Positions 43,266 to 63,281 of a stretch of 64,000 nt of DNA are shown here, piece by piece. Source of the DNA: Kiloniella sp. (GTDB lineage: Bacteria; Pseudomonadota; Alphaproteobacteria; Kiloniellales; Kiloniellaceae); contig NZ_JBLWTH010000008.1 of assembly GCF_048270245.1 (NCBI RefSeq), positions 43,839-107,838 of the forward strand, read 5' to 3'. The notes below the pieces were generated by a model that had not been told where the DNA came from, made no database searches, and worked only from the letters and a program-made list of their open reading frames with translations. Position 1 is the stretch's first letter. Each line of letters starts with the position of its first letter. A program made the position numbers and the translations under genes.

Positions 43266-43776
43266 GCCAGTTATAGAGTTGCTTGTATATTAAAGAACAT
43301 CGATTCACACGGTTGCGTCAATTTAAGCGGTAGTTGTAACACCAATGGTCTATCTAGACTTAAAGCAACGCTTACTCGATCTTTAGCAAAAGCCCGTTAC
43401 AGAACATCGCGAAAGCCAAGCGCATCGTTAACACATGCGCAGTCTTTTTTACACCTGAAATAAATGCACAAAAACACCAAATAGAAACAGAATAAACACA
43501 ATAAAATTATAGAAAAACAAAACCCTCAAACCCACAGAAAAGAATCCACACAAAAATTAATTACAAAAAATACAGTAAATGTGATTATTTTCTTATGATT
43601 ATTAACAATTACTGTAATTTAACGAAAAAATCATACAAATATATGTAGTTATTAAAACATTAATTCTATATAAAATTTTAAATACTGATAAGATATTTGA
43701 GTCATATTCCTCAACCATGGCCTGAGTGAGTTGCCTGAAAAGGCGGTGCCAATACGAAGAGCCCGAGGAGGCTAGA

Positions 43777-46700: not shown

Positions 46701-49700
46701 CCAGGAAATGGTAATGGTCGACGAAACAGACCTGAACACCAATGCCTCTATCAAGGATGGTGGCGCTTTTGATACCTTTGATTTCGGCGCTGACGGTCCA
46801 CAAACGGACTATGGCTGGTCCCCTCATAACGACGCCATCAAAATTTCAGTAGACACCAGTGGCATCACAACCGCTGAAACAGATACGCCAATTACAACTT
46901 CACAAGTTGGCAATGTGCTCACCGGGTGGGCTGGTGGCGACGTCGCCTTCACCTTTACAGTAAATCCTGACGGGACCTACGAGTACGAGCAATTCACCGC
47001 ATTGGAACACCCAAATACGAATGATCACAATGACCCACTGCCTATGAAATTCTACGTCAAGTTGGTAGATGGAGACTGGGATTATGATTGGGGTTCTGTG
47101 GATGTCATCGTAAAAGATGATGGCCTGCTTGCCCATAATGACGAAGAATGCGTAACTGAGGTTGAAAAAGAAACCCAACCGCAAAATATCGGCATCGTGA
47201 TGGATTTCAGTGGGTCAGTCAGCAATAGCGACCTCGCTACAGAAATTGCCAGCGTAAAAACCTTTATCCAGACGTTGTTTGCATCGGGGGCAAGTGTTTC
47301 AGTATCACTTGTGGCCTTTGGTGCTGATGCTGCAAACCTTGGAACCTTTACTGATCTGGCCTCTGCAGAGGCTGCGCTGGATGGCACCAGCCGTGGCGTC
47401 ATAAACTCTGGCGCTACGGATTATGAAGCCGCTATGGAAATGCTCTTTTCCGACAGCGGTGGTGACTTTGAATATGTTCCCGGTGCCAATAACCAGGTCT
47501 TCTTCCTCAGTGACGGAGAACAGAATGACGGCGCTTCACCCCTAAGCAATGGATCTATTGTGCTGGATAGTGGTGGTAAAGCTGACCTACTGGACGGCGA
47601 TATTGGCTTCACAGCTGTTGGTATTGGCGGAGGCGTCCAGCCGAGTGATTTTGTCAATTTCTTTGATGGTGGCGTTGTTGCCAACGACGGCGAAGTTCTA
47701 AACGCGGCATCATTCGAAGATCTTGCTGATGTGTTGGTTGGAACAATCGGACTGAGTAACACCGTAAGTGGTAACGTTATCACTAACGACGAAATTGGTG
47801 CCGATGGACTTGACCGTATTTGTGATATCGAAATCGATGGTACGACCTTTAGCGTTGATGATGCTGGGGTTCTAACCGGGCCAACGATAGGTACACCATC
47901 TGCGATTTATGATGATGGAACCAAACTCTTAACCGTTACCTCAGCCAAAGGAACGCTAGAGATTTACCTTGAAGATAGTGGCGGTAATGCTGTTGGTGAC
48001 TATACTTACACCAGCTTGCCGGCCGTTCAACATGGCGCACCAGGAACACCAACCGATGACGTTGTTGATGATGTATTCACTTACTCTATCCTCGATAACG
48101 ACGGCGATAAATCTTCCGCTGATTTAACAATTTGTATCAAGGATGATGAGCCTGTTGCAAACAATGACGAAATTTGTCTTGTTGCCCTGCCCGGTGAAAC
48201 ACCACCGCTTAATATTGCCTTTGTAATTGATGAGAGCGGATCGATTGGTCAATCAGACTATCAGACCCAGATAAATGGTGTCCGTACCTTTATTGACAAT
48301 CTCGTCGCGGAAAGTACTGCTTTGGAAACACTGGCTTTCTCTCTGGTTACTTTCGGGACGAATGCCGAAGACTATGGCACCTTTGTCTTTGATGGCTTCG
48401 CAGGTGGAACGCTGAACCTTGATGATTTCAAGCGTCTCAATAATGATGGGACCCTGTCATCGATAACCCTGGATGATCAACTTTCAACCATTTATGGGGC
48501 TTATGATGGGTCAGGCTCAACCAACTATGATGCAGGTATGGCGTCAATGTTCGGGGCGAACTCTGAATATCTGGACAATCCTGTGACAAGCTTACCATCA
48601 CATGAAAGTCACCTCTACTTCATTAGTGATGGTTCACCTAACGACACGAGTACAAGCAATAGTGATGAAATTGATAGTGGTATTGCAACCGCAATTGTTG
48701 ATAACGACATCCAGGTTACCGGAATAGGTATTGGTACAAGTACCTCTGTTGAAAATGGACTAGAGGATTATTTCCTTAATACGGGCGGCGGTGATGCCGT
48801 AAATCCTTCTATCCCCGGCAGTCTCTATAGCTTTGTCAGTGTACCAAACTTCGCTGATCTTGCTGATGCCCTAGATGGTACCGTCGGCGGAACTGATGCT
48901 AGTGGCAACCTTCTGACAAATGACGAACCGGGTGCTGATGGATTTGGTGCTGTTGCGATTACCGAAGTTCTTCACGATGGTGTTGTTTATACCGACGTAA
49001 GTGATGGTAGTAGTGATGGTATGATCATTATCGCGTCTACGGCCGAAGGCGGTAAACTGGTGGTCGATACGGCCACAGGCGATTACACCTATACCGCCCC
49101 GGGTTCAGTTAATGGTGATTATGAAGAAACCTTTGTCTATACCATGGTCGATGGTGACGGCGATCCTTCTTCCGCAGACCTAAAAGTCTGTGTAACATTG
49201 CCAGAGCCAGTTGATGCGGTAAACGATATCATCCTAACAAACATTACCTCTGGTGATATCGATATTCCTGATTCAGCCTTGCTGTTTAACGATGACATCA
49301 ACGCAAGTACAACACTCACCGATGTTGATAACCCTGTAAACGGGGCCGTCAGCGAAAGTGGTGGTGTTGTGACCTTCGTATCAGATGGTATGGATGTTTC
49401 CAGCCTGGGATTTGGGTCCGGTAGTACGGTCCAGACAATTTCAGAGCGAAATTATGGATCTGATGGATATTTTTACCATGATCCTCCCGGACCTAATAAT
49501 GATCATGTCGATAACTATGAAAGCAATAGTGATAGGGATACCTCTGGCTCTAATCGTTCAACTCAACTTAATCGTACAAGTTGGGTAAGAGATGACAGCA
49601 CACCGGCAAATGAAGTTGTTCACTTACTGAATATCAATGGCCGAATTAGAGATGCAAGTGATCGTGATGGCTTCTCTACAACCAGACGCTATGACCGTGA

Positions 49701-50469
49701 TAGCTATCAAATCGCATTGCTGGGTGGGGAAACCTTCTCACTCGAGAGCTTTACAGGGCATTCCAACCTTAAGGTTGTGCTTTATAGCCCCGGAGGATCA
49801 GTTATAGATTCTGACTTTAACCCGGGAGAAAGTTATACGGCCATCAGTTCTGGAAACTATTATATCCGGGTACAATCAACCGATAGTAAAAACGATAGTG
49901 GAACACGAACACGAGACTACGAAGCAGAGCTTTCTATCGAAAGTACTGATATCGTCCAACTTCAGGATGGTGGTTTCGACTATGAAATATCAGATACATT
50001 AACAACTGACGTTGCCAGTGCATCCGTCGAATATCAGGACGGTAGTACGATTACCGGTACGGGCGATGGTGAAATTCTTGTCGGTGGCGATGGTGATGAT
50101 ACCCTCATCGGCGGCGGTGGAAATGACACCCTGATCGGGGGAGCTGGCTCAGACACCTTAACGGGTGGTACTGGGGCGGATACTTTCCTCTTCTATGGTC
50201 AAAATATTGGTGTAGATGTTGATACCATCACAGATTATGACAACAGCGAGGGTGATATTCTGGATGTCAGTGATCTGATTGTCTTTGATGACAATACCGA
50301 TGTTGTTGCGAATTTTATTCGAGCAACGGATACAGGACCGACTACATCACTGGAAATCTCTAGCGATGGCGTTACCTATACAGAAATTGCTGTTATGGAA
50401 AATGTCAGTGCGACAGATATCCTGACGGTTATTCTTGATAACGACGAACACATGATTGTCGTTGGATAG
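43777..50469 (+). CDS. Large T1SS-type RTX adhesin (retention module, ~140-aa repeats, two VWA domains, RTX nonapeptides)
   Basis: GAGGAGG SD before ATG 43777; ETAAG in the N-terminal module; DFSGS and DESGS MIDAS motifs; GGDGDDTLI/GGGGNDTLI/GGAGSDTLT/GGTGADTF; C-terminal DTITDY..GDILDVSDL; highly acidic and Gly-rich. Confidence 0.9.
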   Translation: MSDSNTPRNSDDATSEIETLEQDSVLAVGQAATELSIDLPAVGTSQAITAQAGQRLQLNFDATQAAAVVDGQNLVLNFDLDNDGTPESSIVFENLAGDFSDGEAPLLIIDGTEVAASQLIGLVLAQAGDLPLETAAGAGAGPAGGGGSVYSEDTGSVIDLLIAQGIIGPTELNFGLLDGIDENTDPAEGTFDVTFITTETEVPDYEGGISGTFAGGFEDWLPNQHLPGGDEGKDDNPFGGEGGEDTLEAVAAPMQVIFTFVPADNETLDFVVMDPLPDGARLFIGGTDLGDEYVGGFPAVIAGSDLGDVYILPPPDSDEDINVSGTAVITDPDSGLSAVLPYSVEAIIDAVADMPLLSLGGEGGEGGEGGEHNYPDLQVRDQITDLPDENENEVYLTGGLNDPIGEESIIKLPINAELCDKDGSETLTLVLSGIPAAFTINEECTNLPEGWELFGPITPAPVPDDGGEGGEDSILSEEPGQLVQYIVRYTGDLPDPDDPDLDPSETVDFTTFGGLVAFNTNDYTTTGVDVEGGEGGEGGESPVPTVLTDEQSIILPPKPEDGGRYQEGPTHTNGPVVITVQAIAEEQETDVGTDELTTENNIATAESSFVFDIEEDVPDIVRYAKLYLDETEGVQTSDEWRAANDVPGVSDAQTILATAMAADSTVGGEIVSRGFTSIVDGLNLYTDGSNDEADGSDGPLDTDAPSSPSFSPPDDLEDIRFIDYDGAYSGVKTTDGSHINLYSSDSDPSVIYGRVGGEDGELAFVVTIGADLTNGENDVDIYVEQYLSLKHPKTYSHDEDINTMKLRFFAVDDEGDQSNIGKLRINFDDDGPKIGGHEFLCVDETDFDNSAVISDSGVFDTFDFGADGPAIDDIRISMFSLGTIRTSDGNHAVSTSQSGDTLIGTADGEEVFRFTVNPDGSYSYEQYEALEHWNSYNHNEPIGMKFSVRIKDGDGDKAYGNVILKVLDDGPDIGGQEMVMVDETDLNTNASIKDGGAFDTFDFGADGPQTDYGWSPHNDAIKISVDTSGITTAETDTPITTSQVGNVLTGWAGGDVAFTFTVNPDGTYEYEQFTALEHPNTNDHNDPLPMKFYVKLVDGDWDYDWGSVDVIVKDDGLLAHNDEECVTEVEKETQPQNIGIVMDFSGSVSNSDLATEIASVKTFIQTLFASGASVSVSLVAFGADAANLGTFTDLASAEAALDGTSRGVINSGATDYEAAMEMLFSDSGGDFEYVPGANNQVFFLSDGEQNDGASPLSNGSIVLDSGGKADLLDGDIGFTAVGIGGGVQPSDFVNFFDGGVVANDGEVLNAASFEDLADVLVGTIGLSNTVSGNVITNDEIGADGLDRICDIEIDGTTFSVDDAGVLTGPTIGTPSAIYDDGTKLLTVTSAKGTLEIYLEDSGGNAVGDYTYTSLPAVQHGAPGTPTDDVVDDVFTYSILDNDGDKSSADLTICIKDDEPVANNDEICLVALPGETPPLNIAFVIDESGSIGQSDYQTQINGVRTFIDNLVAESTALETLAFSLVTFGTNAEDYGTFVFDGFAGGTLNLDDFKRLNNDGTLSSITLDDQLSTIYGAYDGSGSTNYDAGMASMFGANSEYLDNPVTSLPSHESHLYFISDGSPNDTSTSNSDEIDSGIATAIVDNDIQVTGIGIGTSTSVENGLEDYFLNTGGGDAVNPSIPGSLYSFVSVPNFADLADALDGTVGGTDASGNLLTNDEPGADGFGAVAITEVLHDGVVYTDVSDGSSDGMIIIASTAEGGKLVVDTATGDYTYTAPGSVNGDYEETFVYTMVDGDGDPSSADLKVCVTLPEPVDAVNDIILTNITSGDIDIPDSALLFNDDINASTTLTDVDNPVNGAVSESGGVVTFVSDGMDVSSLGFGSGSTVQTISERNYGSDGYFYHDPPGPNNDHVDNYESNSDRDTSGSNRSTQLNRTSWVRDDSTPANEVVHLLNINGRIRDASDRDGFSTTRRYDRDSYQIALLGGETFSLESFTGHSNLKVVLYSPGGSVIDSDFNPGESYTAISSGNYYIRVQSTDSKNDSGTRTRDYEAELSIESTDIVQLQDGGFDYEISDTLTTDVASASVEYQDGSTITGTGDGEILVGGDGDDTLIGGGGNDTLIGGAGSDTLTGGTGADTFLFYGQNIGVDVDTITDYDNSEGDILDVSDLIVFDDNTDVVANFIRATDTGPTTSLEISSDGVTYTEIAVMENVSATDILTVILDNDEHMIVVG
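46261..47115 (+). repeat. Two tandem ~139-146-aa repeats (T1SS-143-like) within the adhesin
   Basis: DDGP.IGG.E...VDETD....FDTFDFGADGP and FTVNPDG.Y.YEQ..ALEH recur at 46261 and 46678, with visible DNA similarity. Confidence 0.8.
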
Positions 50470-50486
50470 TTTTACCCCTTAACGAA

Positions 50487-50519
50487 CAAAACCCCCGTAG
50501 AAAAACTGCGGGGGTTTTG
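50487..50519. terminator. Bidirectional rho-independent terminator
   Basis: CAAAACCCCCGTAG-AAAAA-CTGCGGGGGTTTTG between convergent genes. Confidence 0.85.
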
Positions 50520-50536
50520 TTGTTTTGGTATGCTAT

Positions 50537-51331
50537 TTAAGGTCGGAAAACCTTCCACCCATTCGCTGTCTTCAACCAAAATGCGCCTTGGGTAATTGTT
50601 GTACGTCCCGTGGCAACATCAGTTTTTTCTTCAAACTGTATTGGTCCTTGATCTTGACTGTTTACAACCTGGTAAGCACGTCCGCCCAATATTTTATTCA
50701 CCTGTACATCTTTGCTTGATTTGATCGTGTATTTACCACTGAGCAATTCAGAAACCATACCCTTGATCATTTCAGGGGGCGGCCCACCAGCAAGAGGTAG
50801 ATCGGTAAACATCGGCTCAAAGAAAGCCATATAACCCTTGGCATCACCGGCCTCTGCGGCGTTACGCATCATCTCTATCGCTTCCAACAATCCTTCATCA
50901 GAGGTAATTTCACCTGTCAGATAACTGAAGGCAGGCTGGGTCTTGGCCTGAAAAATGGCGTTTTGTTCCCCTGCCCCTTGTTGATACAACTCAGCCAGTA
51001 CATTTTCATTCTTACCCGGCTCTTTGGGGAAATCGCCTTCACAAGCAACGAAAACCTCTGCACGCCCTGTGGCATCAGGGCTATCAGTAATCAATTCAAT
51101 CTTGAAATCATTATCCCCCTCTAACAACAGGTTTGCCGGAACAGTATTCGAGTGTGATCCCTTGTGATTTATCAGGATGACGTTATTCACCCTCACTCTT
51201 AATTCTGCTGCGTCACTTCCTTGAAGCGCAACCGCTGTTATTTCCTTACACGCGTGAGTAGGCATTGCAGTTAACCCCATTGATCCAATTGTAACCAGAG
51301 CCAAATAAACAGGCTTCATATTTTTGAGCAT
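50537..51331 (-). CDS. Exported hypothetical protein (beta-rich N-domain, possibly NTF2-like C-domain)
   Basis: Signal peptide ending THA; 264-aa ORF with SD and upstream ECF-like promoters. Fold is a pattern-based guess. Confidence 0.75.
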   Translation of the reverse strand: MLKNMKPVYLALVTIGSMGLTAMPTHACKEITAVALQGSDAAELRVRVNNVILINHKGSHSNTVPANLLLEGDNDFKIELITDSPDATGRAEVFVACEGDFPKEPGKNENVLAELYQQGAGEQNAIFQAKTQPAFSYLTGEITSDEGLLEAIEMMRNAAEAGDAKGYMAFFEPMFTDLPLAGGPPPEMIKGMVSELLSGKYTIKSSKDVQVNKILGGRAYQVVNSQDQGPIQFEEKTDVATGRTTITQGAFWLKTANGWKVFRP

Positions 51332-51433
51332 GACTTTTCCTTTGAATTTAAGGCCCGTTGAACTTGAAGCCCTTTAATTTCAAATCTTTTAATTACGAGT
51401 ATGGGGTTGGCCTAAAGATCTGATCATCAATCC

Positions 51434-51493
51434 GTCGGACAGCACCCAATGTTTTGTTCACAACTAGGTCGGTCCAACACAAACAACAGTTCA
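51434..51493 (-). promoter_or_regulatory. Two tandem ECF-type promoters
   Basis: TGAACT-N16-CGAC (51493-51468) and TGAACA-N17-CGAC (51460-51434). Confidence 0.65.
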
Positions 51494-51549
51494 AATAAAA
51501 ATATAAAATTTCCATCTAACTGTTTTTATTTCTATAATTCACAAGGGTT

Positions 51550-53160
51550 TTAACAAGTACCTTTGATCAATCCCGCACCGTAAATGGAATCTCGTCCGTG
51601 ATCACCCAAATCAATTACGGAAAAAGACAAGGCCCGAGATAATACCTGTCGTGACATTTTCGGATTATTTTTGAGGATAAGCGACGCAACAGCCAAGGCG
51701 TGTGGTGTCGCAAAGGATGTACCGGAAACATACCCGCCCTTATTCCCCGGCACAGCTGTCCAGATATCCACACCGGGGGCAGCATAATCAATAAAATCCC
51801 CCTGATTGGCATCGCGGTATATCTTGTGACGGGAATCAATGGCTGTAATTGAAAAGACCCCCTCTAAAGCTGCCGGGTAACTTACAGGTGCCTCAGGTCC
51901 TTGATTTCCAGCACTTGAGAAAACAAGGGCGCCTTTTTCTAGCGAAAGAACGAAACCTTTGTTTAACACCCTGTTCGGCACATCAGTACTAAGCGAAACA
52001 TTGATTAAACGCACATGATTTTCAAGCAGCCAATCCAGACCCTGTAATACCGCAACAGTACTCGCCAATTGATCCCCGGAATTGTTCAACCTTAAAACCA
52101 CCGCATTAAATAGCTGTGTTCCGGGTATCAGCCCTTGATAACCATTTTCTTGATTATTACCGATCAAGATAGATCCAATAGAAGTTGCATGACTAAGGTC
52201 AATCGTCTGATTACCCAAAAAATTACGCGATACAATGGCCTGTCCATCAAAAGCAGCGTGGTGCTGATCAATAGCACCATCCAGAAGACCAATGGGGAAA
52301 CCAAGCTGTGTTACCTGACACCCTTGATCCAGATCCCAACCAATCGCTTTTTGTGCATATAAACGAGGTTTTGCAGAAGACGTAAGATCATTATTAAAAT
52401 CAACCTCGGCATTTGGAAAAACAGTTCTCAGCTCTTGAATAACAGCCCCCGCGTTTGTAGATCGGGTCTGGATCAATACTGATTGTAAGGCATCAAGGTT
52501 GTAAACTTCGAGAACAGGTAAACGACGTCTTTGAAGTTCGGAACGAACTGCATTTTCCTGAGCACTATCAACCAGAATAATGACATCCTGTTCGATAGAG
52601 ACATCATTAACCACACTGGTTTCCGTTGGACAGATGCGTACACTTAAACCTGTTTTATCAAATACTTGGCGAGTACTCCTCTTAAAGAAAACAAGGTCAT
52701 ATTTTGTATTTAAATCAATACCCTTTTTAGGTAAATAACTTGAGATCAGAGTATTCTTTTTATTTAGAATATCCAACTCTATCAAATCATGAGTATTACT
52801 TAATCCCAAGCGATAGCTATTTGGAATATCGTCAAAGTTTTTGCCCTGAATGGTTAATATTGTGCCCGGGCGAACGCAGTTTGCTCTTATCCCGGAAAAG
52901 ATAATCTCATCAGATCGATTACCTGTCGGTCGGGACGTAACCGGATCATCAGTTACGGTCCGGGACTTTCCTGTAGATGTCGACGCCCCCGGTATTGGCC
53001 GAGTATTGGGTGTTGCCCTCGTACCTGGAGTGCCAGGTATCGGTGTCGTACCTGGTTCTTCACTCGCGGGATCAGCAGATGTTTGTGCGGGTAAATCCTG
53101 CGGTATTCCAATTGAAAGCAGCAAGAAAACGACGAGAGTTAGAGAATGGCGCAACATCAC
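51550..53160 (-). CDS. S8 subtilisin-family serine peptidase with signal peptide, P/T-rich linker, IPT-like domain and prodomain
   Basis: Triad LLDG / HATSI / SGTSFATP; oxyanion SAGN; IDYAAPGVDIW; DLGDHGRD..YGAG. Confidence 0.92.
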   Translation of the reverse strand: MMLRHSLTLVVFLLLSIGIPQDLPAQTSADPASEEPGTTPIPGTPGTRATPNTRPIPGASTSTGKSRTVTDDPVTSRPTGNRSDEIIFSGIRANCVRPGTILTIQGKNFDDIPNSYRLGLSNTHDLIELDILNKKNTLISSYLPKKGIDLNTKYDLVFFKRSTRQVFDKTGLSVRICPTETSVVNDVSIEQDVIILVDSAQENAVRSELQRRRLPVLEVYNLDALQSVLIQTRSTNAGAVIQELRTVFPNAEVDFNNDLTSSAKPRLYAQKAIGWDLDQGCQVTQLGFPIGLLDGAIDQHHAAFDGQAIVSRNFLGNQTIDLSHATSIGSILIGNNQENGYQGLIPGTQLFNAVVLRLNNSGDQLASTVAVLQGLDWLLENHVRLINVSLSTDVPNRVLNKGFVLSLEKGALVFSSAGNQGPEAPVSYPAALEGVFSITAIDSRHKIYRDANQGDFIDYAAPGVDIWTAVPGNKGGYVSGTSFATPHALAVASLILKNNPKMSRQVLSRALSFSVIDLGDHGRDSIYGAGLIKGTC

Positions 53161-53774
53161 TTCCCACCACTTTCCCCGCCGTTACGTTGTACGGTTTCAA
53201 CCAGATTTTTGTGCGCTTGAAGCTTGGCGATAACAGCTTCAGGATCTTTTGATACAGCCAGCTTATAAACGCCCAGAGATGAAGGGCCATCAATAATACG
53301 AGCATCAACAGCCAATAAAAGTTCGCGAATATTTTCTTCACGTGCCTCTGGAACAAAAGTAACCGACAGCACTGGACCACGGATATAGGCGGCATTACCA
53401 CCACTCGCAGCAACCAAGTCTTTGTTGTTTTGCCACAAGGGCACAACATAAGCCGTCTGGACAAGCAACATAAAACAGGCTGCAACCGCTGCTATCCGCC
53501 ACACCTTATTTTTGATATTATCATTTTGAGGTAAACGTCCGCCCCGTGCTGTTTGCTCTTTTGCAAGATCACGTTGCAAACGCTTCAGACCAAGCTGACC
53601 AGGCGAGCTTTCATGTGTTTGATTTTGAACTTCGTCTCTCAGGTTTTCCAGAAAAGCACATTCATCTCGAAGAGCTTTATCTTGGCTCAAAGCTTTTTTA
53701 ACCGCCTCAAGATCTTCCCCCTGAAGACTACCATTCACATAGAATGGTAAGAGTTCTGAGATTTCCTTTTTCAT
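53157..53774 (-). CDS. Transmembrane anti-sigma factor
   Basis: ELLPFYVNGSL anti-sigma-domain start without HxxxCxxC; one TM (IAAVAACFMLLV); directly follows the ECF gene. Start ATG 53774. Confidence 0.85.
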   Translation of the reverse strand: MKKEISELLPFYVNGSLQGEDLEAVKKALSQDKALRDECAFLENLRDEVQNQTHESSPGQLGLKRLQRDLAKEQTARGGRLPQNDNIKNKVWRIAAVAACFMLLVQTAYVVPLWQNNKDLVAASGGNAAYIRGPVLSVTFVPEAREENIRELLLAVDARIIDGPSSLGVYKLAVSKDPEAVIAKLQAHKNLVETVQRNGGESGGK

Positions 53775-53776
53775 GT

Positions 53777-54328
53777 TCAGCCTCCCATACGGTTGGACAG
53801 GCAACGTTTCATTGCCTGTTTGGCATGGAACATACGGGTCTTAACGGTGTTTTCCGGGCAGTCTACAATCAGTGCAATTTCTGAATAAGGAAGGTCTTCG
53901 AAAAATGCCAGTTGCATCACGGCACGGTGTACTGCTTTTAAGGTATCAAGACAGAACTTGATATGATCACTTTTTTCAGCAGTCAAAAGACATGCCATAG
54001 CATCCGGACTATCATCCGCCGTTTCAGGAAAGTTGTCGCTATCCATTGGTATGTCTGTTTTCTTACGCATCCGATCCACCGTCTTGAAGTATGCTATTCC
54101 AAATAGCCAGGTTGATACTTTAGAACGCCCCTCAAAGGTTTCGGCTTTACGCCATACCTCTAAAAAGGTTTCATTTAGTATGTCGGCGGCTTCGAATGAA
54201 TCGTTCAATTTTGATTTAATAAAAAGATACAGTCGTTTTTCAAACAGATGATAAAAATCAGCAAAGGCGGTTTCATCGCCTTTGCTGACACGTTGAAGAA
54301 GAGAATATGCTGTATCGTTTTCGGTCAT
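53777..54328 (-). CDS. ECF RNA polymerase sigma factor
   Basis: Region 2 (ADILNETFLEVWRKAETFEGRSKVSTWLFGIA) and region 4 (LPYSEIALIVDCPENTVKTRMFHAK). Confidence 0.95.
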   Translation of the reverse strand: MTENDTAYSLLQRVSKGDETAFADFYHLFEKRLYLFIKSKLNDSFEAADILNETFLEVWRKAETFEGRSKVSTWLFGIAYFKTVDRMRKKTDIPMDSDNFPETADDSPDAMACLLTAEKSDHIKFCLDTLKAVHRAVMQLAFFEDLPYSEIALIVDCPENTVKTRMFHAKQAMKRCLSNRMGG

Positions 54329-54337
54329 TAATAATCC

Positions 54338-55531
54338 CTATGGCATATACAACAATTGACGTGGTGAGGAGCCGATAACGCGCCCACTTTTATCAAAAGC
54401 ACGTAATCGCCAATCATAACTTTCCCCTGAATTCAGATTGTCCAAGGAAAAAGCAGAAAGTTTAAGTTTCAAATCCTGAGCGGAAACAACTTTTCCAGAA
54501 ACAACTTCGTCATGTCCCGGAGTAAGTATTTCTACCTGATAGGCAAGTGCACCGGGGACATTTTCCCACGCGAAAACTGTATCCTGATTGACACGGGCAC
54601 CGTTTCCTGGGCTCAAGGCCGTCAAATTATCAGCTGGCCTTTTTGTCGAAGTTTCGAGAACAAAATACCTCAACACAGGTAATTCGGTAATGCCTTCAGC
54701 ATTTTCGACACTAAAGGTTAGCAAATAAAGGCCATTTTTTGTTGTCGGTAATGCCGGGCTTACTATCCTCGTTCTGCCCTGCCCCGAACTCACAACCTGT
54801 TGTCGCACAACCTGTAGAATACGACCTCGCGCACTTCCAAGACTTGCTGTGGGGTCAATAATACGCCATTCGCCCTTTAGAAGACCGCTACTTCTGAAAT
54901 TTATCTCCGCAATGGCTCGTCTCGTATCTCCTTTGGCGATAACGTCTGTTCTAGCATCATTATCAAAACGAAGATCAATACGATTTATACTGAGCGCTCC
55001 CCCCTGACCAGAACCAGCAAAAACAGAAAGTCGCGCCAAGCCTGTTGTTTGCGTATCTGTAAAGGTTCTGGATATCAAAACCGATCCCGCGGGGGCTTCG
55101 GCTATTTTTCGAGCAAGAGCTGAAGAGATTGAGAGAACCTCACTAAAGCGCAACGTTTCACTTTGGGCAGGATTCAAAGTTGACTGTCGAAGCAAAGTAC
55201 CACCAAGCGTCGCGACATTGGTGCCATTAATTTGAAGAATAGCATTTGTCGAACTAACCGGAACTGTTGCCGGAGCTGTTGGCTCTAGCCTTGTAACATT
55301 CCATGTTAACGAAAGGGCAGATGCACCTTTGACATGAACATTAGCGCGTTTGGGCGTCACCGTAACCGAAGTTACATTCGCCTCTGCTATCATTGGGACG
55401 GTCAGTCCAGCTCCGGATATAATACCCGAAACAAAAACCGCTTTAATAGCTAAGCGAAAATGGCGCTTTAACGCGCAAAACCATGTAGGCCTGATACTCT
55501 GTTTCATTTTGGGCACTATCTGCGTTTCCAT
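54338..55531 (-). CDS. Exported multi-Ig/FN3-like hypothetical protein
   Basis: Signal-like segment ending AEA; FN3-like C-terminus (FAWENVPGALAYQVEI...YDWRLRAFD). Start uncertain because it overlaps the upstream gene. Confidence 0.75.
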   Translation of the reverse strand: METQIVPKMKQSIRPTWFCALKRHFRLAIKAVFVSGIISGAGLTVPMIAEANVTSVTVTPKRANVHVKGASALSLTWNVTRLEPTAPATVPVSSTNAILQINGTNVATLGGTLLRQSTLNPAQSETLRFSEVLSISSALARKIAEAPAGSVLISRTFTDTQTTGLARLSVFAGSGQGGALSINRIDLRFDNDARTDVIAKGDTRRAIAEINFRSSGLLKGEWRIIDPTASLGSARGRILQVVRQQVVSSGQGRTRIVSPALPTTKNGLYLLTFSVENAEGITELPVLRYFVLETSTKRPADNLTALSPGNGARVNQDTVFAWENVPGALAYQVEILTPGHDEVVSGKVVSAQDLKLKLSAFSLDNLNSGESYDWRLRAFDKSGRVIGSSPRQLLYMP

Positions 55532-57530
55532 TGAATTCCTCCATTGATCCTCTTAGGGCCAATGCCAAACCAGGGCGATTGGTGCGAGGTTGAAGGAAAG
55601 TCCATTCTACCTCGCTATTAACGATATGACTATCAGATGAGTCGCCACTACCATTCGCAAGGTTCAAATTATAATCAAAATTTAACTCAACTTTTTCTGG
55701 AACAAGTTCCGCTGTCGCCCCTAAATACAGGTTTGTGCTGAAACTGTTTTTATTTGTATCAAGGTCTTCAAACACGCCAAACTGGGTACCACCGTTAAGT
55801 TGCAGTCTATCAGAAACAGTCCAGCCAACATCCAAACCCGTCAAATTGTTAACTGTGTCGCTGGAAATATTTGTATAATCATCAAAACGTGAATAGCTAT
55901 GCGATAAAGACCAATACCATACATCGTAGCTTGATCCTCCGCCCAATGTAATTGACGAAGATAAATTATCTGTATCTCCGCCCTCATAACCATTTGGCGT
56001 TTTAACACGTTCCAAACTGGCAAAGTAACTGTTCATATATAAATAAGGGGTTCCTAACCATTCCCTTGATCCAGTCTGTTGATCAAAAGAATAGTTCATC
56101 CCAAAATCAATACTTTTCAAGCGATCAGTTGGAACGTTCGCGAGACCATCTACATTGTTGGTTTCATGCAAGGCATAGATATTCGCAGATAAAGCGCCCC
56201 AATAAAGATTACTGAAAGCAGTATAGGCATCGCGATCTGATATCATGCCAGGGTTAGCCAGACTTTCAAAGAAAGTATCAACACGGTCATAGCCAAAACC
56301 AACATCAATATTAAGTAGGTCATCACCAATGACGGGCCCTTCATCAAACAATCGATGATCTATCAGTAGTGATACAGCGTCGCTGCTGTCTTTGGGGGCA
56401 TCACCATGATCTCCATCTTGATCAAATAGTGTATGTGCATATTGCGCTTTTAATCTTGTTCTTTGATGACCAAAGCTCTTTTCAACACCGATCCCCCAGC
56501 CAGAACCAGATGCAGAACTATCCAGATCTGAAAGACCAATACCGCTTCCCTCCCCCAAACCATCATAATAGGTGCCCGTTAATTTCAACGCGTCCACATC
56601 AGTTGCAAAGGGTTTTACCGACAGACTAACACCTTTAACACGGTTTTCCGTACTGTTAAGACCAGTCATATCAGCCGCCCCAGAAACGGACTCAGCCCCG
56701 AATGCAAAGCCTTGTGCCTCTACCCTGCTATCACTTGTCCCAATTCGCGCAGAAACACCCCGACGATAAAAGTCTGAAACAAGGAGATTTTCCAGCCCTG
56801 TATCATGGTGCCCCAGTGAAAAGCCACCTGTCAGAGTATCTCCCTGATAATCTGCATTTACGTCATATTCACCCAAATCGATCGTACGTTCTGTCTGCGC
56901 AAAATCGACATCACTTTGTACTAAATAATTCGCATGGGCATCGACCGTCCATTTTCCAGCGGTAAAACCTGAGTTAACATCGCCACTACCCGATAAAGTA
57001 GAACGATTGGTTGCATGTCCAATATTTTGCTGCACGACACGTCGACTGAATTCGGTGAGCGTATCAGCCCGAAAATAAGCCGAACGAAGTAAACGTTCAG
57101 CCATTTCAATCTCAGGGTTGCTTGCACTTAAATCAGAAACATTACCAGCCGATCCTGTGCCATCGCCAGTTATAGTAAAAGTCCATTTCTGCCTTATCTC
57201 TGACGAACCGTCAGGGTTTAGCATTACCAATTTCAATGTGTGTTCATTTCCCTCAAGGGCTTGAAGTGGCTTGTATATAAAATCAACCCCATCAAGGGAA
57301 AGAAGTGACGTAATATCAATACCGTCCAACTCGACACCAAGTTGTGTCAGAGTTATCACATCCAAATCATCCGGAAGATCTATTCGTATTTTTGCATCAG
57401 ATGTTTCTGGTGGTGTAAAATCTGCAATCCAATCGGCCAAGCTTGATTGAACGCATAAAAACGGCAAAAATATTGCCGCTATCAGCGTACCCAAACCATA
57501 TCGATTTTTTTTTCGTTTTTTCAAACGCAC
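55443..57530 (-). CDS. Probable outer-membrane beta-barrel protein with N-terminal Ig-like domain
   Basis: GTG 57530 gives a Lys-rich signal ending SLA; Ig-like segment (VELDGIDIT...HTLKL...WTFTI); many alternating aromatic/Gly strands; terminal aromatic residue (FSLSY). Confidence 0.75.
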   Translation of the reverse strand: MRLKKRKKNRYGLGTLIAAIFLPFLCVQSSLADWIADFTPPETSDAKIRIDLPDDLDVITLTQLGVELDGIDITSLLSLDGVDFIYKPLQALEGNEHTLKLVMLNPDGSSEIRQKWTFTITGDGTGSAGNVSDLSASNPEIEMAERLLRSAYFRADTLTEFSRRVVQQNIGHATNRSTLSGSGDVNSGFTAGKWTVDAHANYLVQSDVDFAQTERTIDLGEYDVNADYQGDTLTGGFSLGHHDTGLENLLVSDFYRRGVSARIGTSDSRVEAQGFAFGAESVSGAADMTGLNSTENRVKGVSLSVKPFATDVDALKLTGTYYDGLGEGSGIGLSDLDSSASGSGWGIGVEKSFGHQRTRLKAQYAHTLFDQDGDHGDAPKDSSDAVSLLIDHRLFDEGPVIGDDLLNIDVGFGYDRVDTFFESLANPGMISDRDAYTAFSNLYWGALSANIYALHETNNVDGLANVPTDRLKSIDFGMNYSFDQQTGSREWLGTPYLYMNSYFASLERVKTPNGYEGGDTDNLSSSITLGGGSSYDVWYWSLSHSYSRFDDYTNISSDTVNNLTGLDVGWTVSDRLQLNGGTQFGVFEDLDTNKNSFSTNLYLGATAELVPEKVELNFDYNLNLANGSGDSSDSHIVNSEVEWTFLQPRTNRPGLALALRGSMEEFNGNADSAQNETEYQAYMVLRVKAPFSLSY

Positions 57531-57612
57531 GCCTGATATTCTCCAAGGCAGACTTCGTACAATTTTACACCAAGATACTATAGAAATCAGTAATTTGAAC
57601 AATAATCCAAAG

Positions 57613-57628
57613 TGTATCAATTGTATCA
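57613..57628. promoter_or_regulatory. Direct-repeat box copy 1 (putative response-regulator site)
   Basis: TGTATCAATTGTATCA; near-identical copies at 59294 and 63266. Confidence 0.55.
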
Positions 57629-57656
57629 GTAAAAGCTGAATTCATTTTCAACGACA

Positions 57657-57695
57657 TAAGAAAAGAGCAGCAGGACCTTATTTTAGACCCTGCTA
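57657..57695 (-). terminator. Rho-independent terminator after the exported-protein gene
   Basis: Minus strand GCAGGGTCT-AAAATA-AGGTCCTGC then TGCTCTTTTCTT; stem includes two G-U pairs. Confidence 0.6.
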
Positions 57696-57713
57696 CATTT
57701 ACTTCACTTTCGT

Positions 57714-59063
57714 TTATTGAGGTGTCTGAATTATCAGGCGTTTGGGTCTTTCAGTTTCTTGTGTTGCTTTACCAAGGGGAGCCCTTTGCGGCTTTTTCTG
57801 CACAGTACCACGTGTATCTGGCATAGTGTCGCTCCCCTGATTTTGATAACCACCCAGTTTGGCATTACTACCATTTACAGTTACCTGAGGTGTACAACGA
57901 TGCTTGAAAGTCGCTGAACCAAACTCTTTCCAAGGCCCATAACTATCACTGTTTTGATCTTTGACTTGAGCTTCAATCGTCATCGCATGTTCATAGGTTT
58001 TATTGATTGTGTTCCACCATTTGAATTGTTGATGATTGTACATTTTTTCAATCAAGGGATAATCAAAATCAAAGTGCCTGTTTATCTGGCTCTCTGAATC
58101 GTAACTGCCCAAATAGATGTTTGGCAGTACAAAATTTCCTTCACTGTTTTTCACATCAATTTTAAAACGGACCGTTCCCTTACCTGCCCCTTTGTAGTTC
58201 ACACGAATTTTAGGGTTAGGCGTCCCTTCGGAACATTTTCCAATATGATGTGGCATGTTTGGCTGAAAAGTTGCCTGATTTAAAAGCAAAGATTGATTGT
58301 TGTTATACTGTGGATTATTGCCCACCTGTCCCAATTGAGCATTCAAAATAGGCTTATCGGTTATAGCGGAGTCACCTTTATATTTGACTTGAATAGTAAA
58401 ATTTTTGGTCTCAAAGCCAGCTTTCCATGGGCTGTGACCTGGCGAGAGATATTTTCTGCACCACCCCGCAAGAGAAACAGGCCTTTGCAGAACGATTTCC
58501 TGATCGTTTTTATAAAAATCTGCTTTCGATCCACCACCTTGTAGGTGGGATTGTAATTTTTTATTGATTTCTTCCAAGGGATCAACGCGAACAGCCGGAT
58601 GGCCATTTTTAATTTGATTTAAAGGAACTGTGAAACTCTCATCACCATCCGTCCCCTCTGTTACCCACTTACCCAAGCCAATGCGGCTTTTATGACTAAC
58701 TTCATAGGAACTTTGATACAGTGCTGCATTATCATTGATGTCATCAACAAACATACCGAGAGGGCCAAAATAAATCTTGGCCTCTTTAAAATCTATTTTT
58801 TTATCATCGCCACACTGTACAAAACCATCGGCTTCGATCTCAATGGATGATTCCTGTATCTGTAAATTGACATTGTTTACAGACTTACTTCCTGAAGTAT
58901 TCTTGACATTAATAACCGCGGCATACCCCGGAAAGTTCAGATCTACATTCTGAACGTACTCAGAGTTTCCACTAGATGCCGCAAAGACAGTGCTTGAAAT
59001 GATAGCACTCGTCCCAAGTGCAGCAGCGCTTACGCCAAGAAGTAACTTTTGAAACTTATTCAT
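57714..59063 (-). CDS. Exported beta-rich hypothetical protein (~449 aa, 4 Cys)
   Basis: AGGAG SD before ATG 59063; Sec signal ending VFA; own promoter and terminator. Confidence 0.85.
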   Translation of the reverse strand: MNKFQKLLLGVSAAALGTSAIISSTVFAASSGNSEYVQNVDLNFPGYAAVINVKNTSGSKSVNNVNLQIQESSIEIEADGFVQCGDDKKIDFKEAKIYFGPLGMFVDDINDNAALYQSSYEVSHKSRIGLGKWVTEGTDGDESFTVPLNQIKNGHPAVRVDPLEEINKKLQSHLQGGGSKADFYKNDQEIVLQRPVSLAGWCRKYLSPGHSPWKAGFETKNFTIQVKYKGDSAITDKPILNAQLGQVGNNPQYNNNQSLLLNQATFQPNMPHHIGKCSEGTPNPKIRVNYKGAGKGTVRFKIDVKNSEGNFVLPNIYLGSYDSESQINRHFDFDYPLIEKMYNHQQFKWWNTINKTYEHAMTIEAQVKDQNSDSYGPWKEFGSATFKHRCTPQVTVNGSNAKLGGYQNQGSDTMPDTRGTVQKKPQRAPLGKATQETERPKRLIIQTPQ

Positions 59064-59121
59064 TTTGTTCTCCTGTATTGTCACTCACTGTTTCGAGTAA
59101 CCCGATGTTGTCGTTACAGGG

Positions 59122-59150
59122 TCTGACGCAATAAGAACGGGAAAGGTTCA
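59122..59150 (-). promoter_or_regulatory. ECF-type promoter
   Basis: TGAACC-N16-CGTCAGA with AT-rich upstream sequence, about 60 nt before the start codon. Confidence 0.7.
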
Positions 59151-59293: not shown

Positions 59294-59309
59294 AGTATCG
59301 ATTGTATCA
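59294..59309. promoter_or_regulatory. Direct-repeat box copy 2
   Basis: AGTATCGATTGTATCA, 14/16 identical to copy 1. Confidence 0.45.
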
Positions 59310-59369: not shown

Positions 59370-59395
59370 TGAACCTGGCTGACCGTCCCTACGAC
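59370..59395 (+). promoter_or_regulatory. ECF-type promoter, divergent
   Basis: TGAACC-N16-CGAC preceded by an AT-rich tract. Confidence 0.6.
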
Positions 59396-59697: not shown

Positions 59698-60183
59698 ATG
59701 CTTAAAAGCCTCATATTTATCGGGTTACTTGTAAGTTCAGTTGGTTTTCACTCCATCAAAGGACATGCCAACGCGCAAAAACCTGCCCTGAAAGATCTAA
59801 GCCAAGTATGTGAAGCCGACAGGTACAACCAACCTATCGGGGAATTTTCCGTCGATGTTTATTGCGATGATACCCCCATAATCGGCCCCTATAGCCTCAC
59901 CCAAAGGACATGGCAAGGCGGTGACTGGGCTTTTTCTATCACCAGTTTTATGTGGGGAAATGACAGAAAATCACTTTACGTTGCAACAGAAGGATATAAT
60001 GGAACAGGCAAAGCCTATTACCTAGATATCGAGACACAAACCAGCCAAGAAGTTTGGTCAACTTCTCCCGGTGACTGTGGCAGCGTATTAACAGGAATGA
60101 ATGATAAGAACATCACGCTAGCAACAATTCCCTGCGATGGAAAACAACCCCGAAACATAGAGATCACGATACCTAAGAATTAG
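59698..60183 (+). CDS. Exported hypothetical protein (161 aa, 4 Cys)
   Basis: Signal peptide ending ANA; beta-propeller-blade-like segment (FMWGNDRKSLYVAT...AYYLDI). Confidence 0.65.
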   Translation: MLKSLIFIGLLVSSVGFHSIKGHANAQKPALKDLSQVCEADRYNQPIGEFSVDVYCDDTPIIGPYSLTQRTWQGGDWAFSITSFMWGNDRKSLYVATEGYNGTGKAYYLDIETQTSQEVWSTSPGDCGSVLTGMNDKNITLATIPCDGKQPRNIEITIPKN

Positions 60184-60207: not shown

Positions 60208-60915
60208 TTACCCAAAGACATAACCTATTCCGCGAACGGTACGTATGATTTCTGGTTTTGTCGGATTAACTTCAATTTTACGCCGAAGCCGGGAAATACG
60301 AAGATCGATGGATCGGTCAAAGGGTTCCCACCCTCTATCATGAGCTTGTTCAAGTAATTGATCCCGATTTAAAACACGCCCCCTATTTTCAGAAAAAACA
60401 CGTAAAAGACTAAATTCCATCGCTGTCATGGCAATTTCATTATTATCAGCATCAAGAAGCTGCGCACTATCCAGATCAAGTCTGCACACGCCAAACTGAA
60501 TTGATCCTTTGGTTTTAGCAGATTTTTGCTCTGACAAAGCGCTCGGTATTCTTCGTAAAGTCGCTTTTATTCTTGCTTCCAACTCTCTCAAATCCACAGG
60601 TTTGGCCAGATAATCATCAGCCCCCATTTCCAGTCCGACAATACGGTCAACGACTTCAGATGCCGCCGTCAACATTATAACCGGCACGTCAGAGTTATTT
60701 CGTAAGTTACGAAGGGCAGTCAAACCATCTTCACCGGGCATATTAATGTCTAGGATTACCAAATCAGGAGAATGCTTTTCGGTAAACTTGTGCATCGCTT
60801 TTGCATCGGCGGCTTCAACTGTTTCATAGCCACGATCACTTAAATATTCGGCAACCATTTCACGTAAATGTGGTTCATCATCACAGACAATAATTTTGTA
60901 ACCATTCGCACTCAT
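60208..60915 (-). CDS. OmpR-family response regulator
   Basis: CDDE, ILDINMPG, LTA, ADDYLAKP; wHTH with FDRSIDLRISRLRRKIE and IRTVRGIGY. Confidence 0.96.
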   Translation of the reverse strand: MSANGYKIIVCDDEPHLREMVAEYLSDRGYETVEAADAKAMHKFTEKHSPDLVILDINMPGEDGLTALRNLRNNSDVPVIMLTAASEVVDRIVGLEMGADDYLAKPVDLRELEARIKATLRRIPSALSEQKSAKTKGSIQFGVCRLDLDSAQLLDADNNEIAMTAMEFSLLRVFSENRGRVLNRDQLLEQAHDRGWEPFDRSIDLRISRLRRKIEVNPTKPEIIRTVRGIGYVFG

Positions 60916-60921
60916 GTAAAA

Positions 60922-63265: not shown

Positions 63266-63281
63266 TGTATCAATTGTAACA
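63266..63281. promoter_or_regulatory. Direct-repeat box copy 3, upstream of the kinase gene
   Basis: TGTATCAATTGTAACA, 15/16 identical to copy 1. Confidence 0.55.

Follow-up and report, generated by a model that had tools for sequence, protein, structure and literature searches.

Sigma factors of the extracytoplasmic function (ECF) type give bacteria a major route of transmembrane signalling, and to our knowledge only a handful of mechanisms for their activation are known. A locus of Kiloniella sp. raises the question of how such a sigma factor may be activated when its gene, together with that of a membrane-bound anti-sigma factor, lies among genes for a subtilase-type (S8) protease, a large beta-barrel, an immunoglobulin (Ig)-like partner and exported proteins. 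The window analysed here is a 64,000-nucleotide stretch of contig NZ_JBLWTH010000008.1 (positions 43,839 to 107,838). A preliminary description had placed seven co-oriented genes in it, which is confirmed with refined gene limits: the list of open reading frames (ORFs) contains seven, head to tail and all on the minus strand, within 50537-59084. We propose that a set of exported proteins forms a local regulon under a protease-gated ECF switch and that the barrel pair is probably their outer-membrane partner, and consider this reading to have an even chance of being right. Its predicted regulatory skeleton, consisting of the sigma factor, the anti-sigma factor, an autoregulated promoter and a regulon of exported proteins, is well supported. 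The seven genes are listed below.

57714-59063, minus strand: g1, exported 449-aa protein, with an AGGAG Shine-Dalgarno site and a Sec signal
55443-57530, minus strand: barrel gene, GTG start, 695 aa
54338-55531, minus strand: g3, Ig/FN3 partner, 397 aa
53777-54328, minus strand: ECF sigma gene, Sigma70 regions 2 and 4
53157-53774, minus strand: anti-sigma gene, 205 aa, ATG start
51550-53157, minus strand: S8 subtilase gene, 535 aa
50537-51331, minus strand: g7, exported 264-aa protein, no match in a Pfam scan

The ATG of the partner, preceded by a GGAGGA site, lies 89 nt within the barrel ORF. Partner and sigma genes are separated by 9 nt and sigma and anti-sigma genes by 2 nt, while the anti-sigma stop overlaps the S8 start as TGATG, with one base common to both. 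Relatives settled two of the starts: a longer barrel ORF beginning with TTG was set aside because barrel homologues are 660-710 aa long, and the ATG of the anti-sigma gene was fixed because a relative has a stop codon in the upstream frame. Pfam and NCBIfam recognise three of the seven products, namely the ECF sigma factor, the N-terminus of the anti-sigma factor and the S8 domain.

The sigma factor matches Sigma70_r2 (5e-12), r4_2 (2.4e-11) and TIGR02937 (77 bits against a cut-off of 42.9). It has regions 2 and 4 only and is followed by a membrane anti-sigma factor with an N-terminal anti-sigma domain. That N-terminus is of the class-I type, with matches to NF052375 and zf-HC2, the latter also found in 9 of 20 homologues. 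A single transmembrane segment (residues 92-111) leads to a periplasmic domain of about 70 aa beginning at residue 133, in which a beta-alpha-beta-beta-alpha-beta pattern can be recognised by eye. This domain scores 23.6 bits against PF22148 (fervidolysin N-prodomain-like; cut-off 21) and covers model positions 5-81 of 81. The sensor domain may thus resemble a subtilase propeptide, although the likeness is modest, being one match just over the Pfam cut-off. On the cytoplasmic side, between the sigma-binding helices and the membrane, the anti-sigma factor also carries an almost invariant motif, NSPGE(L/F)GLKRLQ, at residues ~55-67.

The protease matches Peptidase_S8 (2.5e-25, 89.8 bits in Pfam), and the intact catalytic triad read earlier from the sequence holds across the family: D293, H323 and S481, together with N418, are invariant in 39 of 39 aligned homologues, and the Asp-His-Ser order with an oxyanion Asn identifies a subtilase. 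A signal peptide, a P/T-rich linker, an IPT-like domain, a prodomain-like segment ending in PRLY|A, the catalytic domain and a C-terminal Cys follow one another in a layout that is likewise kept across the 39 homologues. The best named relative, mycosin, was rejected (TIGR03921, 89.9 bits against a cut-off of 278.75; no type VII secretion genes nearby), and PADLOC gave generic subtilase matches only, with no defence system. An M50 site-2 protease is encoded elsewhere in the genome (PF02163, 252 bits, G000:C2:314748-315773).

To what extent do these genes belong together? A scan using one genome per species recovered 34 loci in Kiloniella, Sneathiella, Micavibrio, Curvivirga, Methylophaga and several metagenome-assembled genomes (MAGs), and the barrel is present in 30 of 61 related genomes. 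The order of six genes (449-aa protein, barrel, partner, sigma, anti-sigma, S8) is kept in about 30 loci of Alpha- and Gammaproteobacteria. In the closer clade of the 34-locus scan the 449-aa gene is included, directly upstream of the barrel, and 14 neighbourhoods of other genera have barrel, partner (one or two copies), sigma, anti-sigma and S8 in this order at 30-40% identity. As the preliminary description had expected, the genes therefore co-occur elsewhere, with an order that recurs in loci down to 30% identity, far beyond chance. Its seven-gene unit holds in part: the six-gene order is conserved, whereas the 264-aa gene adjoins the module in Kiloniella alone, apart from one displaced copy in locus L039, and falls outside the core.

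The six genes do not form one indivisible machine either. It should be noted that the genome sets are samples, and that counts of absence refer to the genomes sampled (401 evenly drawn Pseudomonadota and the 61 related genomes). A profile of the anti-sigma periplasmic domain matches 21 of the 401 genomes, and 18 of the 20 non-self matches have an ECF sigma gene and an S8 gene within a few kb. The 20-kb surroundings of these trios contain unrelated genes and mostly no homologue of the barrel, the partner or the 449-aa protein. The barrel occurs in 5 of the same 401 genomes, making the trio about four times commoner, and barrel-partner pairs at ~26% identity stand alone among metabolic genes. 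Because the trio and the barrel pair each occur alone, the locus is best described as two separable modules that have been joined, plus lineage-specific cargo. The preliminary description had tied the protease to a secreted product, and here the comparison points elsewhere, with S8 coupled most tightly to the anti-sigma factor and not to the cargo. It is because this is the tightest evolutionary link of S8 that we favour a protease-gated switch.

The genes that the sigma factor may control can be predicted from a shared motif, TGAACC-N16-CG(A/T)C with a T-rich upstream stretch, which has 12 matches in the window against 2.9 expected, six of them within the 8 kb of the locus. The predicted ECF promoters are as follows.

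59125-59150, minus strand: promoter of the 449-aa gene, TGAACC-N16-CGTC preceded by a T-rich stretch, 66 nt upstream of the ORF
55641-55666, minus strand: promoter inside the 3' end of the barrel coding sequence, ahead of partner, sigma, anti-sigma and S8
51468-51493, minus strand: promoter of the 264-aa gene; a second, weaker match lies at 51434-51460
59370-59395, plus strand: divergent promoter, 328 nt upstream of an exported 161-aa orphan gene (59698-60183, plus strand)

TGAACC together with an A/T-rich stretch upstream of it occurs at only five sites of the 4.07-Mb genome. Four of the five lie in this locus and correspond to the four promoters just listed, and the fifth, the only strong copy outside the locus, precedes the gene of an exported 248-aa protein on contig C5. 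The sites are also conserved. Nearly all related loci have the motif of the 449-aa gene in the corresponding position, 50-100 nt upstream of that gene; the embedded motif lies exactly 135 nt upstream of the partner ATG in about 30 loci; the motif of the 264-aa gene is kept upstream in five other Kiloniella loci; and the divergent promoter of the 161-aa gene has a counterpart in three of five other Kiloniella loci. In other genomes the motif also precedes genes for extra exported proteins on the operon strand, and on the opposite strand of related loci there are 0-3 matches per 20 kb. Of 10 trio-only loci, 7 have the motif 53-90 nt upstream of sigma, and because it precedes the sigma gene there, the motif can be tied to this sigma family. 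The predicted promoter ahead of the sigma operon, of the ECF type with an AAC core at -35 and a CGT/CGA core at -10, then amounts to autoregulation. The earlier suggestion that the ECF factor reports envelope status is retained as regards ECF regulation, but the role appears wider, with predicted promoters standing before the genes of the 449-aa and 264-aa proteins, the partner-sigma operon and the genes of other exported proteins.

The promoter inside the barrel ORF left a clear trace in the coding sequence. Over most of the last 110 barrel codons the entropy at third codon positions is ~1.5-2 bits (28 non-redundant sequences), and all six codons at or below 0.6 bits (0-0.6) fall in the -35 and -10 elements of the embedded promoter. 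Two of the six encode variable amino acids, and because third-position entropy is low even where the amino acid varies, selection acts on the DNA at this promoter and the pattern is no by-product of protein conservation. The GGAGGA site and ATG of the partner are likewise kept at synonymous sites of the barrel ORF, with a weaker trace than at the promoter. This is a clear case of dual coding and regulatory constraint, which operon annotation would overlook. A look-alike, TGAACG-N16-CGAC at 54182-54207 (minus strand), lies within sigma region 2; third-position entropy is low there too (25 of 26 sequences use TTG for Leu), but the encoded residues are conserved as well. It might be an internal promoter giving anti-sigma and S8 without sigma.

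A second predicted input concerns the barrel gene. A 14-nt box with the consensus G(A/G/T)TACAAT(T/C/A)GATAC, also written GATACAAT(T/C)GATAC, has three copies in the window.

57614-57627, minus strand: GATACAATTGATAC box, upstream of the barrel gene
59295-59308, minus strand: copy upstream of the 449-aa gene
63267-63280, minus strand: copy upstream of a PAS kinase/OmpR-type operon (60208-63171)

The box is kept at all three places in six other Kiloniella loci carrying the kinase-regulator pair and is absent in K. laminariae, which has no kinase pair nearby. It is probably the binding site of the neighbouring OmpR-type regulator, and would thereby provide a second input to the module.

These elements can be assembled into a mechanism. 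At rest, the single-pass anti-sigma factor would hold the sigma factor at the inner membrane, with its periplasmic domain of ~70 residues acting as the partner of the translationally coupled S8 protease. Once active, or freed from its own prodomain, S8 would remove this domain, the M50 site-2 protease of the genome would complete the cleavage, and sigma would be released. Free sigma would then read TGAACC-N16-CGAC promoters, both that of its own operon, starting from the 3' end of the barrel gene, and those of the genes for the exported proteins of 449, 264, 161 and 248 aa. The barrel and its three-Ig partner would form an outer-membrane complex serving the induced proteins, and in Kiloniella the barrel gene itself would be under the neighbouring PAS kinase/OmpR-type pair through the repeated box. 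We infer the contact between S8 and the anti-sigma factor, the cleavage of the latter, an inducing signal and a transport role for the barrel.

Such a switch would be a variation on the known regulated proteolysis of anti-sigma factors, to which an orphan outer-membrane module is attached. It resembles RseA/DegS/RseP (Escherichia coli sigma-E), Bacillus subtilis sigma-W/RsiW/PrsW and sigma-V/RsiV in combining an ECF sigma factor with a single-pass class-I-type anti-sigma factor in an autoregulated operon, and in the proposed periplasmic first cut followed by an M50 site-2 protease. It differs in that the candidate first protease is an operon-encoded S8 coupled to the anti-sigma factor and not a DegS-type S1C/PDZ protease, PrsW or signal peptidase, and in that the sensor is a small alpha/beta domain scoring as a subtilase prodomain, with no RseB. 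Membership of the DegS type was rejected on these grounds, the operon protease being Peptidase_S8 and Pfam finding no PDZ, trypsin-like or RseB match in the locus. There is also a likeness to the eukaryotic SREBP pathway, in which a subtilase (SKI-1/S1P) makes the luminal cut in a membrane-tethered transcription regulator before the M50-family S2P acts. This is an analogy only, with an unrelated substrate, no evidence of common descent and a cleavage that is here presumed. A fuller S1P/S2P-like version, in which the subtilase would be the site-1 protease of an anti-sigma factor bearing a prodomain-like decoy sensor, wired to an unrecognised barrel/three-Ig export route for orphan exported proteins and with its own promoter written into the barrel coding sequence, is put forward tentatively and is more doubtful than the switch as such.

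Several observations weigh against the protease-gated switch. That S8 touches or cuts the anti-sigma factor is itself presumed from sequence. The propeptide likeness of the sensor is uneven: only 5 of 20 anti-sigma homologues reach PF22148 at E 0.01, and neither the anti-sigma factor nor its C-terminal domain alone matched a subtilase prodomain among profiles of solved structures. Likewise, hhalign of the C-terminal domain against the prodomain-like segment of S8 gave E 0.07 (controls 0.11-0.29) and hence no evidence that the two are paralogues. A search for anti-sigma homologues added no support: its matches carry names like 'zf-HC2 domain-containing protein', and PF22148 is missing from their precomputed annotation. 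Scanning the complete genome with PF22148 gave no match and missed even the anti-sigma factor, an outcome that we attribute to the prefilter and give no weight. In one locus (L084:7219-14718) a sigma factor and an anti-sigma factor with the same C-terminal domain are accompanied by a caspase-like Peptidase_C14 instead of S8. This type of anti-sigma factor may therefore pair with different protease classes, and the C14/CHAT case counts against a strict S8-propeptide mimic because S8 is replaced beside the same anti-sigma type. As regards the outer-membrane part, distant barrel-partner pairs lack both cargo and trio, by which the function of the barrel may be unrelated to the 449-aa protein, and the barrel gene in Kiloniella lacks an ECF promoter of its own. 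As to gene content, locus L084 (gammaproteobacterial or other Pseudomonadota) has the Peptidase_C14 gene directly after the anti-sigma gene, followed by one for an M23/DUF6923 protein, and a gene for a 1033-aa CHAT protein upstream of sigma.

If S8 cutting the anti-sigma factor is set against its two rivals, in which the domain monitors S8 or S8 processes cargo only, its chances appear roughly even. The latter possibility corresponds to a single export or assembly machine, in which the barrel and partner would secrete the 449-aa product, S8 would mature it, for instance by cutting back the disordered tail, and expression would be adjusted to envelope load by the ECF pair, with no signalling role for S8. 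In favour of this alternative, the 449-aa gene is the strongest ECF target and in about 27 loci immediately precedes the barrel gene, and every extra ECF-driven gene examined between the 449-aa and barrel genes of other loci begins with a signal peptide. In the family alignment, the 449-aa proteins have a Sec signal, four invariant Cys and the conserved motifs NGHPAxR and FKHRCTPQ; the conserved fold ends at a Cys, and the disordered, P/K/Q-rich C-terminal tail that follows contains P-x-L-[DG]-K-[IV]-Q as a loosely kept motif, a possible site of processing. The behaviour of S8 argues the other way. Where a genome has no member of the barrel, partner and 449-aa families, S8 still accompanies sigma and anti-sigma; in one genus (L013/L014) anti-sigma and S8 have moved as a pair ~4 kb off, away from sigma; and the clade with ~35% barrel identity, which has no 449-aa gene, retains S8. 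We regard a single export machine as possible but unlikely. An RPKR furin-like site in the 449-aa tail was not used as evidence of S8 processing, as it is conserved within Kiloniella only.

For the protease-gated switch, the 449-aa protein is the main ECF target and a candidate cargo. In some genomes it has paralogues, each with its own ECF promoter. The family has no relative in a profile search of solved structures, and a Pfam scan of the window protein and 20 family members returned nothing. The 264-aa protein would be a Kiloniella-specific member of the regulon. Among the other proteins behind such promoters, the 248-aa exported protein encoded outside the window (contig C5, plus strand, gene at 51432-52178 in the stretch 51317-52178) combines a linker that is basic and P-rich with a C-terminal part of Ig-like character; its homologues (28% identity, E 4e-7) are found within the module, behind the same promoter, in the Micavibrio-type loci L040 and L041. 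A 133-aa cytoplasmic protein, glyoxalase-fold-like by eye, stands behind an extra ECF-type promoter in L028 (6795-7196), L029, L033 and L048. Its gene is located upstream of the 449-aa gene in four other Kiloniella species and is missing from this window.

A second alternative reverses the relation between S8 and the anti-sigma factor. The propeptide-like domain would bind and inhibit S8 at the inner membrane and so monitor it, and removal of S8, by export through the barrel or by competition from substrate, would leave a bare domain for housekeeping proteases to degrade, upon which sigma would replenish the system in a FlgM-like export checkpoint. The PF22148 match and the translational coupling both fit a 1:1 complex, and S8 is made from the same autoregulated operon. 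As in subtilase propeptides and I9-type inhibitors (PF22148, PF05922), the domain scores over the PF22148 cut-off along nearly the whole model; it differs from them in being tethered to an anti-sigma factor and in lacking the C-terminal tail that fills the active site. It ends just past its last strand, with nothing like the PRLY|A self-cleavage site of S8, and would therefore fit a binder better than a substrate. However, the propeptide likeness is weak, S8 already has a prodomain-like segment of its own, and the trio occurs without a barrel in most genomes. This checkpoint appears less likely still than a single export machine.

The barrel raises a third alternative, in which it would be the signal input. 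The preliminary description had read the 55443-57530 product as a barrel, and it does model as one: a signal peptide, a periplasmic Ig-like (Big_13-like) domain and a helix precede a 26-strand beta-barrel (AlphaFold model, pLDDT 83). The class of the periplasmic domain follows from P0236, a 2385-aa giant protein found in the barrel-family search, which has 12 repeats matching the N-terminal Ig-like domain of the barrel; because Pfam calls these repeats Big_13, the domain belongs to that Ig-like class. Foldseek of the model returned generic large barrels only, the best TM-score (0.41/0.43) being to MtrB and the best E-value (7.7e-9) to FimD, with a TM-score of 0.34. Pfam matched neither the window barrel nor 10 distant relatives, and a profile search of solved structures with the barrel gave no significant match. 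The barrel is a member of no solved or Pfam family. In a search of 1.84 billion representatives at E 0.001 its own family amounts to 1457 clusters, almost all of them 650-710 aa long. The partner consists of an N-terminal signal or anchor helix and three Ig/FN3-like sandwiches (model, pLDDT 82) that match only FN3 arrays in Foldseek, and contains neither a CXXCH motif nor a lipobox. In the neighbourhood comparison its gene is always 3' of the barrel gene, with two copies in one clade.

Were the barrel the signal input, a ligand would alter its periplasmic Ig-like domain, which through the Ig partner would activate S8 or displace the anti-sigma domain. This would resemble FecA/FecR/FecI, where genes for a barrel with a periplasmic N-terminal domain, an anti-sigma factor and an ECF sigma factor are clustered; here, too, the barrel has an N-terminal periplasmic domain, as in TonB-dependent transducers, and more than 40 loci have the genes of barrel, partner and trio side by side. 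On the other hand, the transducer has a 22-strand barrel and the one described here has 26, no Plug, TonB-box, STN or FecR domains are present, the partner is an output of sigma and not upstream of it, and the trio, in being widespread without the barrel (21 against 5 of 401 genomes), does not require it. We consider signal input through the barrel improbable. Membership of the FecIRA type was rejected (no TonB_dep_Rec, Plug, STN or FecR match at E 0.1; Ig-like N-terminal domain and 26 strands in the model). That these are mere neighbours with loosely related envelope functions, as the separate occurrence of the modules elsewhere could suggest, is very improbable given an order kept across two proteobacterial classes, overlapping genes, a common promoter and a copy of it selected inside the barrel ORF.

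Under the protease-gated switch, the barrel and partner would probably be an outer-membrane complex that forms an export or display route for ECF-induced exported proteins; export through the barrel is what we infer from this arrangement. Known systems offer partial parallels. The barrel shares 26 strands with MtrB/MtrA (6r2q) and LptD/LptE, and with LptD also an N-terminal periplasmic beta-domain before the barrel, and as in these systems the periplasmic partner encoded with it could be placed within or beneath the lumen. However, there is no sequence similarity, and the partner here has three Ig/FN3 domains, has no CXXCH haems and is not a lipoprotein. Membership of MtrB_PioB or LptD (OstA) was rejected for want of a Pfam match and with TM-scores of at most 0.41/0.43, too low for homology. 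The chaperone-usher systems (FimD/PapC with FimC/PapD) likewise combine a large barrel, a periplasmic all-Ig partner and an exported subunit gene upstream, but the usher has 24 strands where 26 are modelled here, there are no plug or C-terminal domains, the partner has three domains and the 449-aa protein is not pilin-like. This candidate was also rejected (no Usher (PF00577) or PapD Pfam match; TM-score to FimD 0.34). The parallel with Fap amyloid drawn in the preliminary description does not hold beyond the clustering of genes for a barrel, a peptidase and an exported protein: the barrel has 26 strands here and FapF 12, in a trimer, FapD is a C39 peptidase against S8, and Fap subunits have Q/N-rich repeats, whereas the alignment of the 449-aa family contains no amyloid repeats. 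Neither Pfam nor NCBIfam gave a match to a Fap component.

The proposal of a dedicated envelope system that corresponds to no named one is upheld: Pfam, NCBIfam and PADLOC gave no match to a named system, and no solved relatives were found. Full-text searches of the published literature brought up no ECF/anti-sigma/subtilase system, nor is there one in the 2021 ECF reclassification paper, its supplements aside (PMC7826278). If the proposed role of the anti-sigma-coupled subtilase is true, it would add a mechanism of ECF activation and a bacterial parallel to eukaryotic S1P/S2P. With ~1450 clusters at 50% identity and with neither a Pfam model nor a solved relative, the barrel family represents a sizeable gap among outer-membrane proteins, and in this locus the barrel arrives with a defined regulator, promoter and candidate cargo, which makes its function directly testable.

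Some further features of the locus and its relatives were recorded. One of the conserved loci, L031 (JBALWN010000007.1), is labelled as a Halopseudomonas aestusnigri MAG, yet carries a whole Kiloniella-type locus at 60-93% protein identity (barrel 76%) together with Kiloniella-specific genes; it is probably a mis-binned Kiloniella contig. Within the window, two terminators border parts of the locus.

57667-57696, minus strand: strong intrinsic terminator 3' of g1, 12-bp stem with 6 G-C pairs and a T tail
50485-50521, both strands: bidirectional terminator closing the locus

The second is also used by a gene for a 2247-aa adhesin-like protein (43726-50469, plus strand), which converges on the locus and keeps its place beside the 264-aa gene in several Kiloniella species.

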